From Eledone cirrhosa (Eukaryota), in the NCBI GenBank assembly GCA_964016885.1, contig OZ024742.1, forward strand, positions 179,428,001 to 179,492,000: a stretch of DNA of 64,000 bases, written 5' to 3'. Both the position numbers and the translations under genes were made by a program. Positions 43,101-62,319 of the stretch are shown here, piece after piece; within the stretch, counting starts at the first letter, position 1; every line of letters begins with the position of its first letter. The notes beneath the pieces were generated by a model. The model was not told the origin of the DNA. It did no database searches and worked only from the letters and a program-made list of their open reading frames with translations.

Positions 43101-45580
43101 ACCCAAATAAAAAGCGGACCCCCCCATAAAAAAAACGGGGCACCCAAATAAAACACGGGGTACCCAAATAAAAAACGTAGCACCCAAATAAAAAACGGAC
43201 CCCCCCATAAAAAAACGTGTCACCCAAATAAAAAACGGACCCCCCATAAGAAAACGGGGCACCCAAATAAAAAACGGGGTACCCAAATAAAAAACTGACC
43301 CCCCCCCCATAAAATAACGGGGCACCCAAATAAAAAACGAGGTACCCAAATAAAAAACGGACCCCCCCATAAAAAAACGGGGCACCCAAATAAAAAACGG
43401 GGTACCCAAATAAAAAACGGACCCCCCCATAAAAAAACGGGGCACCCAAATAAAAAACGGGGTACCCAAATAAAAAACGTGACACTCAAATAAAAAACGG
43501 AACCCCCCATAGAAAAACGGGTCACCCAAATAAAAAACGGGGTACCCAAATAAAAAACGGTCACCCTCCATAAAAAAATGGGGCACCCAAATAAAAAACG
43601 GGGTACCCAAATAAAAAAAGGACCCCCCCATAATAAAACGGGGCACACAAATAAAAAACGGACCCCTCCATAAGAGAACGGGGCACCCAATTAAAAACGG
43701 GGTACCCAAATAAAAAACGGCGCACCCAAATAAAAAACGGGGTACCCAAATAAAAAACGGCGCACCCAAATAAAAAAACGGGGCACCCAAATAAAAAACG
43801 GGGTACCCAAATAAAAAACGGACCCCCCCCATAAAAAAACGGGGCACCCAAATAAAAAACGGACCCCCCCATAAAAAAAATGGGGCACCCAAATAAATAA
43901 CTGACGCCGCCCATAAAAAAACGGGGCACCCAAATTAAAATTGGATCCCCCCCATAAAAAAACGGGGCACAAAAATAAAAAACGGGGTAGCCAAATAAAA
44001 AAACGGACCCCCCCTAAAAAACGGGGCACCCAAATAAAAAACGGGGCACCCAAATAAAAAACGGGGCACCCAAATAACAAACGGACCCCCCCCCCCCATA
44101 AAAAAACGGGGCACCCATATAAAAAACGGGGTACCCAAATTAAGAACGGACCGCCCCCATAAAAAAGCGGGGCACCCAAATAAAAAACGGGGCACCCAAA
44201 TAACAAACGGACCCCCCCCCATAAAAATAACGGGGCACCCAAATAAATAACGGACACCCCCATAAAAAAACGGGGCACCCAATTAATAAACGGTCCCCCC
44301 CCATAAAAAACGGGGCACCCAAATAAAAAACGGACCCCCCCATAAAAAAACGCGGCACCCAAATAAAAACGGGGTACCCAAATAAAAAACGTGGCACCCA
44401 AATAAAAAACGGACCCCCCCATAAAAAAACGGGGCACCCAAATAAAAAACGGGGTACCCAAATAAAAAACGTGGCACCCAAATAAATAACGGACCCCCCC
44501 ATAAAAAAACGGGGCACCCAATTAAAAAACGGACCCCCCATAAAAAACGGGGCACCCAAATAAAAAACGGGGTACCCAAATAAAAAACGCCCCCCCCATA
44601 AAATAACGGGGCACCCAAATAAAAAACGGGGTACCCAAATAAAAAACGTGGCACCCAAATAAAAAACGGGGTACCCAAATAAAAAACGTGGCACCCAAAT
44701 AAAAAACGGACCCCCCCCATAAAAAACGGGGCACCCAAATAAAAAACGGGGTACCCAAATAAAAAACGGACCCCCCATAAAATAACGGGGCACCCAAATA
44801 AAAAACGGGGTACCCAAATAAAAAACGAGGTACCCAAATAAAAAAACGGACCCCCCCATAAAAAAACGGGGCACCCAAATAAAAAATGGGGTACCCAAAT
44901 AAAAAACTGACCCCCCCCCCATAAAATAACGGGGCACCCAAATAAAAAACGGGGTACCCAAATAAAAAACGGACCCCCCCATAAAAAAACGGGGCACCCA
45001 AATAAAAAACGGGGCACCCAAATAAAAAACGGACATCCATAAAAAAACGGGGCACCCAAATAAAAAACGGACCCCCCATAAAAAACGGGGCATCCAAATA
45101 AAAAACGGAACCCCCCATAAAAAAACGGGGCACCCAAATAAAAAACGGGGCACCCAAATAAAAAACGAACCCCCCTCATAAAAAAACGGGGCACCCAAAT
45201 AAAAAACGGAGCCCCCCATAAAAAAGGGGCACCCAAATAAAAAATGGGGCACCCAAATAAAAAAACGGGGCACCCAAATAAAAAACGGACCCCCCGTGAA
45301 AAACGGGGCACCCAAATAAAAAACGAGCCCCCCCATAAAAAAACGGGGTACCCAAATAAAAAACGGACCCCCCGTAAAGAAATGGGGCACCCAAATAAAA
45401 AAAGGGGCAGCCAAATAAAAAACGGACCCCCCCATAAAAAAACGGGGCACCCAAATGAAAAACGGGGGACCCAAATTAAAAATGGACCCCCCCCCACAAA
45501 AACGGGTCACCCAAAAATAAAAATGGACCCCCCATAAGAAAACGGGGCACCCAAATATAAAACGGACCCACCCATAAAAA
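1186..45580 (+). repeat. ~44.4-kb satellite of ~20-bp monomers: AAAAAACGGGGCACCCAAAT, AAAAAACGGGGTACCCAAAT and A-tract+CGGA(C)6-10AT
   Basis: Continuous array in one orientation, about 2,200 monomers by length/20. A 60-bp trimer register is visible in stacked lines (e.g. 12661-12840, 15061-15480). Confidence 0.98.
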
Positions 45581-45746
45581 TTTAGTTTAGTTTAGTTTAG
45601 TTTAGTTTAGTTTAGTTTAGTTTAGTTTTGTTTAGTTTAATTTAATTTAATTTAATTTAATTTAATTTATTTAATTTAATTTAATTTAATTTAATTTAAT
45701 TTAATTTAATTTAATTTAATTTAATTTTATTTTATTTTATTTTATT
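45581..45746 (+). repeat. Pentamer tract (TTTAG)n > (TTTAA)n > (TTTTA)n
   Basis: Read directly. The TTTAA>TTTTA gradient matches 601-720. Confidence 0.95.
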
Positions 45747-45791
45747 TAAAAAACGAAACGAAACCGGGGAACCTTAAAAATCTAATGAAAC

Positions 45792-46200
45792 GAAATTATC
45801 TCCCCTTGGCCGGCTGGAAATTATCTCCCCTTGGCCCGCTGAAAATTATCTCCCCATGGCCGGCTGGATATTATCCCTCTTGGCCGGCTGGAAATTATCT
45901 CCCCTTGGCCGGCTGGAAATTATCTCCCCTTGGCCGGCGGGAACTTATCTCCCCTTGGCCGGCTGGATATTATCTCCCCTTAGCTGGCTGGAAATGATCT
46001 CCCCTTGGCCGGCTGGAAATTATCTCCCTTTGCCGGCTGGAAATTATCTCCCCTTGGCCGGCTGGAAATTATCTCCCCTTGGCCGGCTGGAAATTATCTC
46101 CCCTTGGCCGGCTGGAAATTATCTCCCCTTGCTCGGCTGGAAATTATCTCCCCTTGGCCGGCTGGAAATTATCTCCCCTTGGCCGGCTGGAAATTATCTC
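45792..46200 (+). repeat. 25-bp minisatellite x~16, right copy
   Basis: Same unit and orientation as 792-1188, preceded by a homologous AAACGAAACCGGGG...AAAAATC..A.GAAACGAAA linker. Confidence 0.97.
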
Positions 46201-47121
46201 CACTCAATTTCAAATACGATGTTAGCTTAACCTGATCATGGGAGATAACTCGAATATAACCGTTAAATTTACAAATTCAAATTACAGCATCATTAATAAT
46301 CTAAACTATAATAAAGGAAGATCTGCTGGACTGCATACGGTTTAGTTTTTTTCATCCCGTTTGTAAAATAAGTTGGATTACTTTGAATAAATAATAAATG
46401 AATATTACATAATTTATCTACTAAATTTCGTAAACAAAAATAATTTCGTAAAAATAAATAATTTAAAATTGACTTCTTTTCAAAGTTACACTTCCGGTAT
46501 ATCGTTGCCACCACTACCACTTCAACTACCATATATATAGAGAAAGAGAGAGTGTGTGATGTCAAAACTTCCGGTGGCCATCGCTTAAATAAATATACTA
46601 ATTTTCTGTCACTAATTTTCTCTTAATGCAGTTTATATATAATATCGTCTTTTTTAAATGTGTCATGGATTACTTTACTGATTACATAAGACAGTGTAAC
46701 ACAGTCTTCTTTCAATTTCTGTGTATATTGTCAATTACGATTTTATTTGATCATATCTACATGTATATATACTTGCGTATAATATCAATATACACACTAC
46801 ACATGGTAGCAGAAACCACCTGAAGGGTGGTTTTTCTGCTAGTATTAATAATAAAGATAGAAAGAGAAAAAAAGAAAGAGAGATATATAAAAGAATATCT
46901 CTCTTTCTTTCTCTCTCTCTATCTTTATTATTGATATTATTAATGATGGTTTAATTTGAATTTGTAAATTTAACGGTTATATTCTAGTTATCTCCAATGA
47001 TCTGGTTAAGCTAACATCGTATTTGAAATTGAGTGGCACTGCTTCTAGTGTTCAGCAATATTTAGACAACTTAATCAGTGAAACAATTGTCAGACTGTAA
47101 ATAAATCCCTTTTTTTTGTAC
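46200..47121. mobile_element. Penelope-like element remnant with ~100-bp inverted pLTR arms
   Basis: 46200-46300 is the reverse complement of 46936-47036 with few mismatches. The right arm continues into a hammerhead-like fold, AATAAA and a (TA)n tract. Confidence 0.6.
46986..47097 (+). ncRNA. Degenerate type I hammerhead ribozyme with long stem II
   Basis: Stem I TCT/AGA; core CCAATGA (46994-47000, G5 lost); stem II CTGGTTAAG/CTTAATCAG; GAAAC-AATT-GTC at 47080-47091. Confidence 0.55.
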
Positions 47122-52495: not shown

Positions 52496-53230
52496 CGCGT
52501 GTGTGTGTGTCTGTGTGTGTGCGTGTGTGTGTATATATATGTGTATGTGTGTGTGTGTGTATGTATATATGTAAGTAGATTCTTTTAAATACATACATCC
52601 ACACACACATACATATATACATTAAATACATAATTGAATGGTCATTTTAAATTTATTTCTATGTATTGCATTTCTTAATTATTTATTTATTTATCATTAA
52701 CATCATTATCATTATCATTATCATCAACATCGTTATCAACATTTTTTTGTTCTTTTTTTTTGCGGAGGTTGTTGCAATATCAGCATGTATCAACATTACC
52801 GAGTTAGAAACGTAAACAAGTACATTTTTAACTTCAGTCGTAGGTGAGCGGCGGGGAAAGGGAGGTAAGAGGGCATTTTTCACATATTAGTGTGGGTGAT
52901 GGAAGATTACCAAAAAATAAAATAATAATAAAAAACCTTCTATGATGGTGGGCTAAAGACGACAGAGAAATTAAAACATACAATAATGGGGCGGGTGAAT
53001 GACGGGTAGAATGATGGGCTAGAACAATATTAGACTATTTTGCTATTTTATCCTCGCGCTATGTTATTAATGCTATATATTTAGTAATATGTTTGTTTAT
53101 TGTTTTCGTTTATGATTTGGGTAAAGGTTATTGGGGTTCGAACTGTATTTATTGTTTTTGTTTTGTTGTTTTTGTTTATATGTTTGTCTTCTCTTCATTG
53201 TTTATTTGTTCCGTTTTTATTATTATTATT

Positions 53231-54805
53231 GGTGGTGTCGAGCACCAGACACGTCCAGATGCTCGGCACCGCTCTCAAAGAATACGAAGCGGTGATAGGA
53301 GAAAAGATAAACCAGGAAAAGTCGGTGGGCTGGCAGCTCGGTACCTGGAGAGGCAAGTCCATGCCGTCCAACAGCGTCGTGGGGCGTTGGACGGACGGAC
53401 CGGTTAAATTGTTCGGGGTCTGGTTTGGACCGGACCTCCAGATGGAGAAAAACTGGAACGAGGTGACAAGCAAGGTGGCCCCCCTCACCCAGAAATGGGC
53501 CGAGAGGAAGCTGTCCCTGAAAGGCCGGGCGGAGGTGGCGAATGCGTACATCGCATCCGTCATCTGCTACCGTCTCACCGACGTCCCTTGCCCCGGCCCA
53601 ACTCTCACCAACTCTCGCCTCCTCTTCCGCTTTTTGTGGAAGGGACGCGCTCCCATGGTCAGACGATCCATCTGCTGTCAACACCCGTTGCGTGGAGGAC
53701 TGGGCATGCCATGGCTGATGATGCGCAAACATGCTCTGAGGCTGCGACATCTCTGGTGCTTCCTTGACGGTGAATAGGTGTGGTCGCCTTGACGGAGCTG
53801 CAGTCCTAGATTGGGTCAGAAAAAGACCGAGGGATAGCGCTTGGAAACTGGAATGTCTCCAGGCGCTCACTGCCCTCTGCCAGCTGGGCACCAGTATCTG
53901 TGGAACATCCACCTCGGCGTTCTATAGAGGACTAGTGGAGGGGAAGAGCGACGACGTTCTCGGAGAGATCCTGGGCGTCGAAGATCAGCTGTTTGCTCTC
54001 TTCCGGGGAACTTTCAGCCCAGGGCCTATGGATAACTTCCAAAAATCCCTGCCCTGGCAGTGCTACCGAAGAGCGCTGCCGGTTCGAGATAAGCTCTACA
54101 GGCACGGAAGTGCCGTCAACCGAGCCTGTCCGAGATGCGCGCAGAGCGACGAAACCGTCGTGCACGCATTCGTTCAGTGCCCCAGCATTGCTGACTTGTA
54201 TAGGAGTGATCCGGTTATTGACTGAGTCCATTGTGCAGATGATCTCGCCGTCTTCCTTCGAGGAGGAAGGGCAGGCGGTTTTCATCTGCCTGGTGGCCAT
54301 GGCGAAAGAGATTGTGTGGTGGACAAGGTTGAAAGGGTTAAAGACAGACACTTTCCTCTTCGACGAATCCCTAATTAACTTTTTCAAGTTTCACTTTAAG
54401 AGGAAAATTAGGGTGGAGAGGCAAGTGCTGCCTTCTAGCAAGTTTGTTGAACGGTGGGTGAATGTAGCGAGAATGGTCCGAGTGAACGGGAACACTCTGA
54501 ATATACGTCTGTAGTTTGAGAAATGGAAAAATTGAGAGAGGGAACTTGCCCTGGTGGTCAGGGTGGCCGTGGTCTTTTATGTGGTTTTCGCCACGAGTAA
54601 CCCTCGGAGGTTTCCCCCCTATTGAGGAATTTTTCATTGTTTCAATTTTCATTTTTGTTGTTTATATATATATATATGTTTTTTCTTTTCTTATAAGTAA
54701 TAAAAATATTTACACGCACAAAACCCACATCGTACTGTCCTGTACCATCCTGTGCCGTCTGTAATGTTTTTCTTGATGTCAGCCCCTGTGGCCAATAAAG
54801 AAATC
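53231..54805 (+). mobile_element. 5'-truncated L1/Tx1-clade LINE (ORF2 C-terminal part and 3' UTR)
   Basis: KINQEKS, KLFGVWFG, NW...W..RKLSLKGRAEVANAYIAS and the zinc knuckle CPRCAQSDETVVHAFVQC. Stop at 53775 and frameshifts; ORF2 ends at 54514; AATAAA at 54794, then (ATT)n. Confidence 0.9.
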
Positions 54806-55085: not shown

Positions 55086-55126
<41 letters not shown>

Positions 55127-55357
55127 GAAACACACAGATACATGCGGACACACACATATATACATGAATGCATCCGCACCCAACTGTGAGTTAAGGGTGC
55201 CAACTTCACCGATGTTGCTCAATGAATGACTGGGACAGACCAATTCAGTTTGAACCAGACTGAACCAGTATCAGAGTTAAAAATACATTATGAAGAGAGA
55301 AGAAACATTTAGATATAATTAGTAATAAAATGTATCATACCTAAACTGTTCCTAAAT

Positions 55358-55445
55358 TCCTCGACTACGTAGTTTCGTGGCATAAACAAAAACAATATAT
55401 CAAAGATATAGAGTTCTTGTGAGGTCTGCCGACTTATCAAGAGGA
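55358..55445 (-). ncRNA. Type I hammerhead ribozyme, U3-A8 core variant (unit 1)
   Basis: Minus strand reads TCCTC-TTGATAA-GTCGGCA-(44 nt)-TGCCAC-GAAAC-TACGTA-GTC-GAGGA. Confidence 0.8.
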
Positions 55446-55948
55446 TACCTCATTTTACTAGTCTCAAGAACGCGTCTACACGACGTGAGAAAGAATCCCA
55501 AAAGGCGGAGGGGGAGACAGTCACGCGATATAACGGTCGAGAAACAGAGCTAAGCCTCTTATAACCACGAAGAAAATACCACGGAGGCGGAGGGGGTATT
55601 CATATCGAGGCCGTAGAAGAGGTAGTGAAGAAGGCGAGAAGTATGAGTAATGGAAGCTTTCCAGTTGTCCCCACACTTCAAAGATTGCTCGACCAGAGGG
55701 AGTTATTAATATATTTAGAAACACACAGATACATGCGGACACACACATATATACATGAATGCATCCGCACCCAACTGTGAGTTAAGGGTGCCAACTTCAC
55801 CGATGTTGCTCAATGAATGACTGGGACAGACCAATTCAGTTTGAACCAGACTGAACCAGTATCAGAGTTAAAAATACATTATGAAGAGAGAAGAAACATT
55901 TAGATATAATTAGTAATAAAATGTATCATACCTAAACTGTTCCTAAAT

Positions 55949-56036
55949 TCCTCGACTACGTAGTTTCGTGGCATAAACAAAAACAATATATCAAAGATAT
56001 AGAGTTCTTGCGAGGTCTGCCGACTTATCAAGAGGA
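55949..56036 (-). ncRNA. Type I hammerhead ribozyme, U3-A8 core variant (unit 2)
   Basis: Same fold 591 bp downstream. One substitution lies in the stem II loop. Confidence 0.8.
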
Positions 56037-56329
56037 TACCTCATTTTACTAGTCTCAAGAACGCGTCTACACGACGTGAGAAAGAATCCCAAAAGGCGGA
56101 GGGGGAGACAGTCACGCGATATAACGGTCGAGAAACAGAGCTAAGCCTCTTATAACCACGAAGAAAATACCACGGAGGCGGAGGGGGTATTCATATCGAG
56201 GCCGTAGAAGAGGTAGTGAAGAAGGCGAGAAGTATGAGTAATGGAAGCTTTCCAGTTGTCCCCACACTTCAAAGATTGCTCGACCAGAGGGAGTTATTAA
56301 TATATTTAGAAACACACAGATACATGCGG

Positions 56330-56408
<79 letters not shown>

Positions 56409-59941: not shown

Positions 59942-62319
59942 TAGGCATATGACTTTTTTACAACCCCATATGAGCATGCTATTTTCTAATGAGGTTTTTG
60001 TCACAAAGAAATAATTACAGTAGTTTTTTTGTAAATTTTGAAAAAAATTCTTGCACATACTAAATTATATTTTAATTTTTTTGGTAATTAGCCAGTCCCA
60101 TAAAATAAATACCTAAAACAATAAATTATGACAATAAAAAATTTATTTTAATTATTAGTTAAACAAAATTTAATCTCTAAGGTTCTATTACTTTTACAAA
60201 ATGGCAAAATGTCCTGCACAACTTTTACAGCTCGCTCAGCGCAAATGTTCGAGCGTTACGTCACAATTGGAGATTCTTCATTAGACCAACATTTTCTGAC
60301 GGTGTTTGCAGCCTTTTCACACTTGGCCTTAATTAGTTGGTCAATGAGTTTCTGCTTGCTGTCAGCTCTATACAGTTGACTGGAGAACCACATTTTCCCC
60401 CACATTCCGTAGATGTATTCAGCACCAGCGCGCAGCTTCGCTCGTTCAAATAAACCCAAGCAACAAATAAATTGCTCGGCTATTCCACCGAGCATTGTGC
60501 AAATTAGGTAATTTCTTAAAATTTATTTTAGGAAACGCACCGTTTTCAAAGAAATGTTGCACGGCTATCATGAGATGCTGAAGGAAATCCATGTCACTTC
60601 GCCAGCGCGTCGGGGTTTCATTAATTTCCGCCGTTCCATTTGAAAAGTTCTGCTTCAGTTCGTCATAGTTCTTTAAAATGGCCTCAACAAAGTAATAATT
60701 GATATATGGCGAAGTTGTTTTGCTACTATATAGTTGATCAAAATAAACTTTCAATGCACGGTCTAAAATGTGGTGCTGGCATCCAACATATAATGGTTTG
60801 CTGTAACTGCGACGCGCGAACTCACTGTTGAGCATGGCAACAACTCCTGCTTTTTTGCCGGTATTGACACTAGTTGTGTCGGAGACTATCATCACGATAG
60901 ATTCCCACAGTTCATATTTGTCAATAACTTCTTTCAATCCATTAAATATAGTAAGAGCCTTTCCATCAGTTAATGCCATCGGCCTCAGGCGTATTTCTTT
61001 CTCATCATTTTTTATCACTACAACCTGATATTCTACGTCTCTGAATCGTTTTCCATCAAAATGAAGGCTCTATTTTTCCCTTTTGAGTTCATTTTTCCAC
61101 TTTTCCATGAGTTTCTCACCTTCTCTGATAACTGCTTTGTGCACTGCCGACTGACTCGGGGTGCTCACCTTAATACCACCACTTTTAAATTCGTTGTAAA
61201 CTGTTGCTGCTTTTCTACTAGGTAATTTAGTATTTCTTACTAGGTTAACAGCATGAGCTGTGTTGTCTCTTTTTCGTTTTTTTTATGGTGAAGGTGAAGG
61301 TGAAGGTTTGTAATCGCTGGTATTTGTATCGGTGTAACTGTAACTTTTATTTGAGTCCAGATGAATGTATGAGCAGGATGGCTTATCATGATCTAGTTCT
61401 TGTTTTTTGTTTTTAATTCTCTTAGAAGGATGGATTTTCTTTTCACAGTCTATTTTCATTGTAGTATACCCAGCCTTTCCACAACTCTCAACTTGCTTTT
61501 CATAAAATGACAAATCTTCGGCTGCTAACCATATCCCATATCTTTTTGTAATGTCAAACAGATTATTGAAATTCGCAGAGTCAGGTCTTTTCACTTCTTT
61601 TTCCTTTTTTTTAAATTATTTTTTCAATTTTTCGAGGTATTGAAAGTTTGTTGATAGTTGGAAAGCTGAAGTTTTCCCACAAACTTTCACATTCTCCAGT
61701 AATTATCTTAATTATCTTTTTGTTATTTTTCTCTTCAGCAGCAAGAGTGATATATCTATCAACGATCTGTTACTCAGTAGGTAGCTTGCATAATTCGATT
61801 AATGAACTTTGAATTTTCGTTTTCCTAGATTTCTTTCTCTTCTCAAAATGACAACGATTTTGTGCCCAAATCTTTTTCCTTTCCTCTTTAGCAACTGGAT
61901 TTTTATACATCTGAAATTTATAATATTAATATAATATAATTATAAATATTAAAATATATTAATAAATATACCTCGCAAATTTTAATTTATTCTATTTATG
62001 TATTTTATGAATTTTATGAACAGATTAAACTGACAAATAAGTGATGAACAAGCAATAAAGTTGATCCATTAAACAATTTGAAGAAGAATACTATATTTTA
62101 TAAACTGTTAAATTGCACACTATATTTTTTTTTTATTACATACATTGTATATGCAATTCTATATTAATTAATCAATGTTAAAGAATCTACCTTGTGCAAG
62201 AGTTTTTGAAAATTCTAATATTTTTTAACACGCTCGCAAGTATTTTCCAGTAAAAGTTCATCTGAAAATGGCATGCTCATTTATTTTTTTAACAAAAGTG
62301 TACTTTAGTAATATGCCTA
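59942..62319 (-). mobile_element. Full-length hAT (hATm-like) DNA transposon, 2,378 bp
   Basis: TIRs TAGGCATAT(G/T)ACT plus subterminal ATGAGCATGC.ATTTTC..ATGA at both ends. Perfect 8-bp TSD ATATACAT at 59934-59941 and 62320-62327. Confidence 0.9.
60170..61910 (-). pseudogene. hATm-type transposase, frameshifted
   Basis: LHFDGK, SDTTSVNTGKKAGVV, YVGCQHHILD, LHNARW, MWFS and ERAVKVVQD motifs are spread over several frames. Ends approximate. Confidence 0.85.

Follow-up and report, generated by a model that had tools for sequence, protein, structure and literature searches.

A young non-coding retrozyme family in Eledone cirrhosa and the record of its copying in (TA)n insertions

The non-LTR retrozymes of animals, described from coral, mussel and axolotl (PMC7229834) and from vertebrates (bioRxiv 10.64898/2026.07.22.740005), consist of non-coding units arranged head to tail, each with a single type I hammerhead; they have a GC content below 50% and a stable fold, and they are dispersed as monomers to multimers. 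Published consensus lengths are 51-972 bp, with a mean of 650 in ray-finned fish, eight of nine Xenopus retrozyme dimers remained uncleaved in vitro, and 21 of 57 Xenopus families showed homology to pseudo-LTRs (pLTRs) (bioRxiv 10.64898/2026.07.22.740005). A role for the hammerheads of Penelope-like elements (PLEs) and a circle-templated model for retrozymes were proposed in 2014 and 2020 (PMC4209133, PMC7229834). Known features of PLE insertions are partial tandems, an inverted copy with a truncated 5' end, and a tail at one of the ends (PMC8557442). In the green anole Poseidon PLE, two internal reverse transcriptase (RT) start sites downstream of the hammerhead set a genomic "tail" of 30-40 nt, both strands of an AT-rich target are cut and extended, and a dimer is predicted; in vitro, uncut RNA was the main substrate and the hammerhead was dispensable (PMC11167929).

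The window analysed here, a stretch of 64,000 nt, contains an insertion, truncated at its 5' end, that belongs to a young, dispersed family of the animal non-LTR retrozyme class. The family shares all the general features of that class listed above, and its 591-nt unit, which the first-pass annotation had considered longer than usual, lies within the published range. The U3·A8 core is no novelty either, having already been reported in the hammerheads of Schistosoma PLEs (PMC4209133). Unlike the animal retrozymes as described in the accessible texts, this family combines a U3·A8 core with a 44-nt loop 2 that holds a predicted pseudoknot, and it strictly targets (TA)n, with 3' ends fixed at two sites (A and B) and two-armed A/B insertions; no pLTR homology was detected for it among the six PLE families sampled. 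Circular RNA is a feature of animal retrozymes, and for the present family it is predicted. As in the anole Poseidon PLE, two internal starts downstream of the hammerhead set the tail, the target is AT-rich and both strands are extended. The tail is 160 nt long, however, the start sites show short stretches of pairing with the target, one site serves each DNA end, the element is non-autonomous, and its hammerhead is under selection. The element class, the length and the core were thus known before; the interest lies in the record of the mechanism that is kept in the insertions.

The window copy and its predicted hammerheads

Identity at a period of 591 extended across ~55118-56344 of the window. 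As the first-pass annotation had described, two 591-bp units, which differ at one position (55420 T versus 56011 C), lie between (TA)n tracts and have no credible ORF, the longest ATG-started frame of the dimer being 75 aa. The "short third start" was read differently: in the RNA sense it is the truncated 5' end of the insertion. The sense strand is the minus strand of the window, and numbering within the unit begins with the G that follows the predicted cut, at window 55953 and 55362. The window copy (L001) is one-armed, with an A-type end, and measures ~1,227 nt, or 2.08 units, with the 5' truncation at unit position ~201; at position 539 it carries an insertion-wide minority allele. The features were located as follows.

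55118..56344, minus strand: whole insertion, single-armed, 3' end of type A (parsed locus L001)
55363..55953, minus strand: cut-to-cut 591-nt monomer, the predicted circle
55949..56036, minus strand: hammerhead 1, type I, with U3·A8 core, long loop-2 hairpin and palindromic stem III; predicted cut 55954/55953
55358..55445, minus strand: hammerhead 2; predicted cut 55363/55362
56011..56043, minus strand: predicted 6-bp pseudoknot, repeated in the other unit 591 nt lower
55118..55125, minus strand: the fixed A-type 3' end (unit position ~240-245) of the window copy, merging into (TA)n
55280..55290, minus strand: fixed start site B at unit position ~80, located inside the window copy; a second lies near 55874
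55088..55123, no strand: (TA)n target, left part
56338..56405, no strand: (TA)n target, right part

Each unit has on its minus strand a type I hammerhead with three helices round the conserved core, a 3-8 pair and an NUH triplet. It consists of stem I (TCCTC/GAGGA), the core TTGATAA, stem II, GAAA, the triplet GTC and a stem III formed by the 10-nt palindrome ACTACGTAGT. These parts were all found as they had been proposed, and the proposed cut coordinates were right, since C17 falls at 55954 and 55363; the hammerheads start at 56036 and 55445. In the covariance-model scan that had been suggested as a check, Rfam returned no match to a hammerhead family and only microsatellite-driven miRNA matches, and the motif call therefore rests on a custom descriptor and on conservation. 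The LTR retrozymes of plants, which have type III hammerheads in two LTRs and a 4-bp target duplication, do not correspond to this arrangement of one type I hammerhead per unit between (TA)n flanks; no LTR/PBS/PPT layout was found in the family, whose copies take the form of permuted tandems that vary at the 5' end.

Folding of the cut-to-cut monomer on the minus strand gave z = -7.7 relative to shuffled sequences, and the plus strand folded as a circle was barely better than its shuffles (-132.9 against -122.4 +/- 6.2). The palindrome had no stable fold alone, and the duplex of two copies reached -12.9 kcal/mol; in the lowest-energy fold of the monomer, both strands of stem I were paired elsewhere. 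According to these models, the hammerhead would probably cleave as a dimer, with a stem III that is unstable alone and forms a 10-bp duplex between two copies, and the weak lone stem III and the sequestered stem I would both protect a monomer circle. A similar palindromic stem III duplex between copies was described for dimeric hammerheads (PMC4209133). The pseudoknot would pair TGAGGT (56043-56038, 5' of stem I) with ACCTC(G/A) (56016-56011, loop 2). Its cells were paired in 93.9% of cases over 33 copies, and one two-sided change was seen; because the columns are mostly invariant, it is given as a prediction only. Stem I varied as a U-A/U-G/C-G series in 21/5/6 copies. Contacts of the stem I-stem II type are frequent in hammerheads, including the pseudoknotted ones (PMC3088659), and the minimal U3-A8 hammerheads of Schistosoma PLEs share the core covariation, the palindromic helix III and the helix II bulge (PMC4209133). 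Unlike in both of these groups, as far as the texts describe them, the combination of motifs here sits in a tandem non-coding unit with predicted activity.

Two GC-box-like motifs and a TATAAG are located at 55504-55513, 55583-55593 and 55558-55563 (and at +591), ~120 nt upstream of the hammerhead core. They have few recurrent variants and are largely retained in a 79%-identical subfamily, and by their sequence they could form a possible internal promoter. Elsewhere in the window, positions 1186-45565 are occupied by a 44-kb satellite with a 20-bp period, ~2,200 copies and a strong A skew; the same 5-bp and 25-bp arrays lie to either side of it, at 1-1188 and 45579-46201. By eye, the broken frames at 53088-54514 look like the 3' portion of a LINE-type ORF2, with the end of an RT and a cysteine-rich motif, and frames of 207 aa and 110 aa at 60446-61615 (minus strand) resemble a fragment of a DNA transposase.

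A dispersed family with two fixed 3' ends

The DNA search yielded 788 candidates, 40 of which were scored, all at 99-100% identity. Exact patterns counted across the 3.0-Gb genome gave 7,091 hammerhead 26-mers, 992 A ends and 2,551 B ends joined to TA, the A-end pattern being stricter than the B-end pattern and missing the older subfamilies; control patterns had no matches. The family is thus dispersed, multi-copy and mobile. An older subfamily (384 pattern matches) has units of 594-596 nt with 79% identity, also in non-coding tandem form, which indicates that the lineage has been non-coding for long. The first-pass description of a retrozyme-type non-coding tandem with a variant hammerhead accordingly stood: thousands of dispersed copies were found, and an ORF with the family unit as its repeat was present in none of 219 family loci.

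These counts also bear on the reading that would have undone that description, namely that the dimer is the lone pLTR of a Penelope element with an ORF, arose by a one-off duplication or comes from an error of assembly. The hammerhead type, target and end geometry are indeed common to pLTRs in the same genome. Against this reading stand the thousands of dispersed arrays, the lack of any locus that serves as the repeat of an ORF among the 219 family loci, an older subfamily that is likewise tandem and non-coding, and the joining of the unit end to the unit start in an independent run of contigs. We consider this reading extremely improbable.

Among eight sequencing runs, one with very high depth and many variants is probably from the window species; the other seven had depths of ~2-105. 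Runs X1, X5 and X9, labelled as other organisms, contained only the youngest haplotype at depths of 8-105, one of them in the form of a closed 621-nt contig, and other runs of lower depth carried older alleles. The plain reading of family sequence in the runs of other organisms is carry-over of DNA or RNA, and no claim of horizontal transfer is made.

Insertion anatomy was parsed in 189 insertions, of which 38 came from best hits, while A served as the anchor for 89 and B for 62; the anchored sets comprised the first listed places on contig C1, with duplicates and one segmental copy removed. The 5' ends were variable, and the 3' ends fell at unit positions ~80 (B) and ~240-247 (A), 160 nt apart. 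Many insertions consisted of two arms placed back to back with their 3' ends outward. In the 112 resolved pairs, 108 combined A with B, four had one atypical end, and neither AA nor BB occurred; three further cases were cut by the locus edge and one was unclassified. The rule was the same whichever end served as the anchor: the second end was B in 55 of the 56 resolved A-anchored inverted insertions (one atypical, no A) and A in 30 of the 32 resolved B-anchored ones (two atypical, no B), and 23 of 24 inverted best hits were AB. TA was present on both flanks of 111/112 back-to-back insertions, and 58 of 103 simple arm junctions had an overlap of 1-4 nt. In the older subfamily (30 loci fetched, 25 distinct), 15 inverted insertions comprised 10 AB, one BB, one AA and three atypical cases; the A/B rule is therefore strong, not absolute. 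No description of the pairing of A with B was found in the literature consulted, mainly openly accessible main texts; relevant material may exist in PMC7229834 (Fig. S9) and PMC11167929 (Fig. S2).

The partial tandems, 5' truncation, inverted upstream copy and tail at one end conform to Penelope-like anatomy. The same features, together with a microsatellite target, link the family to the Neptune/Naiad-type (TA)n PLEs and to non-autonomous Chlamys elements, for example MRC1. Unlike those PLEs, it has no ORF and no 3' similarity to a sampled autonomous family, and it contains a canonical-order hammerhead, which the accessible text reports as absent from Naiads (PMC8557442). At the B end, a target-type base replaced G77 in 26/142 terminal copies versus 0/316 internal copies, which fits pairing of a nicked TA primer with the RNA. 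The longest arm reached 6,553 nt, and arm lengths departed from an exponential distribution (KS p = 0.006).

The template of copying

We favour, with a probability of about 0.68, a mechanism in which the RNA is cut and ligated and is afterwards copied by a co-active Neptune-type Penelope element, through target-primed rolling-circle synthesis from two sites. Minus-strand RNA would be transcribed from the retrozyme and cut by its own tandem hammerheads, probably as a dimer; a host ligase would close the cut RNA into a 591-nt circle. A dimer of the borrowed enzyme, supplied by the Neptune-type element, would nick both DNA strands, prime one strand at A and its partner at B of a single RNA, and lap the circle repeatedly into (TA)n DNA from these two fixed internal starts. 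The two cDNAs would be joined by short microhomology. The window copy would be a one-armed product primed at A after about two laps. The observed basis of this mechanism comprises the young dispersed family, the (TA)n target, the two 3' ends and the pairing of A with B, together with the read-through, selection and insertion-wide alleles presented below.

In the position-ordered sets, 183 of 222 arms crossed the cut site, and 89 arms were longer than one unit. Both arms ran past the start site of the other in 32/80 AB insertions. A cut linear monomer would give only 80 or 240 nt, and the longer arms thus require either a circle or an uncut multimer as the template. In the parsed insertions, 5' ends were not enriched around the cut site: seven arms stopped within 6 nt of it versus 6.3 expected.

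The variants among copies were distributed unevenly over the hammerhead. Its 43 core and stem positions contained 0/73 recurrent-variant positions versus 23/190 one-off changes (p = 0.0005), and minus-strand pairs were kept by recurrent changes in a ratio of 37:12 against 34:88 for one-offs, an effect that was absent on the plus strand. Recurrent variants are phylogenetically non-independent, and the p values for selection serve as a guide only. This distribution shows, at the level of sequence, that the hammerhead and the minus-strand fold are under selection among spreading copies. A conserved cutter combined with unimpeded read-through is what cutting and rejoining predicts.

A reading without a covalent circle would have the RNA cut to linear monomers and the enzyme jump from the 5' end of one monomer to a 3' end, either that monomer's own or a different one's. 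It accounts for the selection on the hammerhead and for occasional mixed alleles, and end-to-end template jumping is known for R2-type enzymes. Template jumps usually add or lose bases, however, and none of 417 crossings of the cut-site junction contained an indel; nor are stops at the cut site in excess. The seamless junction is weak evidence, because 33/58 other windows were also free of indels. We regard jumping between monomers as improbable.

The distribution of alleles within insertions favours the circle. Variant counts were taken from a gap-masked alignment, except for the A>G figures without L233, the neighbour bias, the length-age relation and the differences of L233. Private alleles at sites present at least twice per insertion occurred in all copies in 41 cases, in a single copy in 135 and in a subset in five. 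At sites with at least three copies spanning both arms, 22 rare alleles (in 14 insertions) were found in all copies versus three in a subset. Insertion-wide haplotypes numbered 23 among the 36 insertions with an arm of at least two units. After gap masking, no unit-specific pattern was common to two insertions among the parsed copies; an earlier excess of insertion pairs with common unit-specific alleles (19 versus 3 expected) was due to gap placement and disappeared. Array length showed no increase in older insertions (rho 0.06, p = 0.45, n = 148), which indicates that the arrays were mostly born long. Descriptions of insertion-wide alleles or of hammerhead selection were not found in the literature consulted, mainly openly accessible main texts.

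The main competitor keeps the same element and start sites and takes an uncut linear multi-unit transcript as the template, with long arrays extended and homogenised by later DNA duplication and the hammerhead retained as a protein-binding fold or in a side role. The in vitro preference of the anole PLE for uncut RNA (PMC11167929) agrees with it, read-through of the cut site is expected under it too, and mixed alleles were present in eight insertions (L031, L037, L199, L248, L250, L257, L270 and L033; 10 subset alleles). A linear template cannot, however, yield an arm longer than its source, nor can it spread a new allele to all units of both arms, as the 22 rare alleles do. The 23 haplotypes in long-armed insertions, the lack of unit-order patterns common to different insertions and the lack of growth with age also count against it. 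In addition, the ratio of hammerheads to B ends was similar genome-wide (7,091/2,551) and over the initial 54 Mb of contig C1 (100/35), and no large master array is thus visible in the assembly, in which collapsed arrays could hide. We therefore judge the uncut multimer unlikely, though the least unlikely of the rivals; selection, insertion-wide alleles and age-independent length, all read from sequence, favour the circle over it.

The mixed insertions deserve separate mention. The allele pattern of L031 was staggered, which fits DNA duplication after insertion. In L037, one allele was limited to the first lap of both arms, and in L250 and L257 alleles common to both arms were out of step; these patterns fit a multimeric or second template. 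Therefore, some insertions either arose from a multimer or from two templates or underwent later change, which argues against a pure single-circle model. The departure of arm lengths from an exponential, the use of uncut RNA by the anole enzyme in vitro and the lack of cleavage in eight of nine Xenopus dimers also count against it.

Sense-strand A>G changes made up 10/41 insertion-wide alleles versus 6/135 single ones. This excess leans on one insertion, L233, without which p = 0.02, and no ADAR neighbour preference was found among the A>G changes (p = 0.36); A-to-I editing of a single template is thus a lead only. L233 (G000:C1:50595600-50600600) has eight copies, each of which carries seven A>G differences from the youngest haplotype, three of them private, and it is a candidate product of an edited template.

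The circle-templated mechanism can be carried further, to a version that we hold at about even odds. In it, the genome would preserve a record, on the scale of a population, of twin-primed rolling-circle retrotransposition: an enzyme dimer would grip one ribozyme-made circle at two fixed sites, one per DNA end, and both copies would lap; changes of a single RNA, possibly A-to-I, would then appear in every unit, and lineages would be founded only by copies with an intact hammerhead. If true, this would settle the origin of the tandems, inverted copies and tails of the Penelope type, and the hammerhead would have a required role in vivo. For the role of PLE hammerheads and the circle-templated model, the family provides three linked genomic facts, namely selection on the hammerhead, no stop at the cut site and private alleles common to both arms. 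It also yields the rule that each DNA end has a start site of its own, and the same genome offers a young candidate for the enzyme, which makes the model directly testable.

A candidate enzyme partner

The first-pass annotation had named a Penelope RT as the possible mobiliser, and the insertion anatomy, the (TA)n target and the geometry of a co-existing PLE support this. A search for GIY-YIG domains gave 10,595 candidates, of which 150 were scored and 50 fetched. The fetched loci included several (TA)n-ended families, at least four of them with U3·A8 cores. In one, L081, a 938-aa frame with RT and GIY-YIG domains and a CX4CX2C linker lies between two pLTRs; linkers of this kind are associated with Neptune elements (PMC8557442). 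The L081 element has a U3·A8 hammerhead, a (TA)n target and ends that lie ~82 and 144 nt past the cut in its hammerhead, and thus matches the retrozyme in target and end geometry. Inverted copies of L081-type PLEs (L086, L092 and L113) also paired B with A. The scored copies of the L081 family included 131 with 97-100% amino acid identity over 301 aa, which makes the element as young as the retrozyme. We infer that this Neptune-type element is a candidate donor of the enzyme.

The retrozyme unit had no homology to the 3' regions of six PLE families, sampled from the 50 fetched of 10,595 GIY-YIG candidates, beyond microsatellite-like matches to TG/TA repeats. No chimeric retrozyme-PLE insertion was found among the examined loci; L113, which had been considered as one, was rejected, since a retrozyme appears to have inserted there next to an older PLE end (99% versus 94% identity). 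Matches to a short-stem U3·A8 pattern proved to be an unrelated old short element (L101, L103-L108 and L110) that has a U3·A8 hammerhead, its stem III being a different 10-nt palindrome.

In many young copies among L081 and related loci, the open frame that surrounds the RT measures exactly 775 aa. This common frame suggests a conserved frameshift or an intron upstream.
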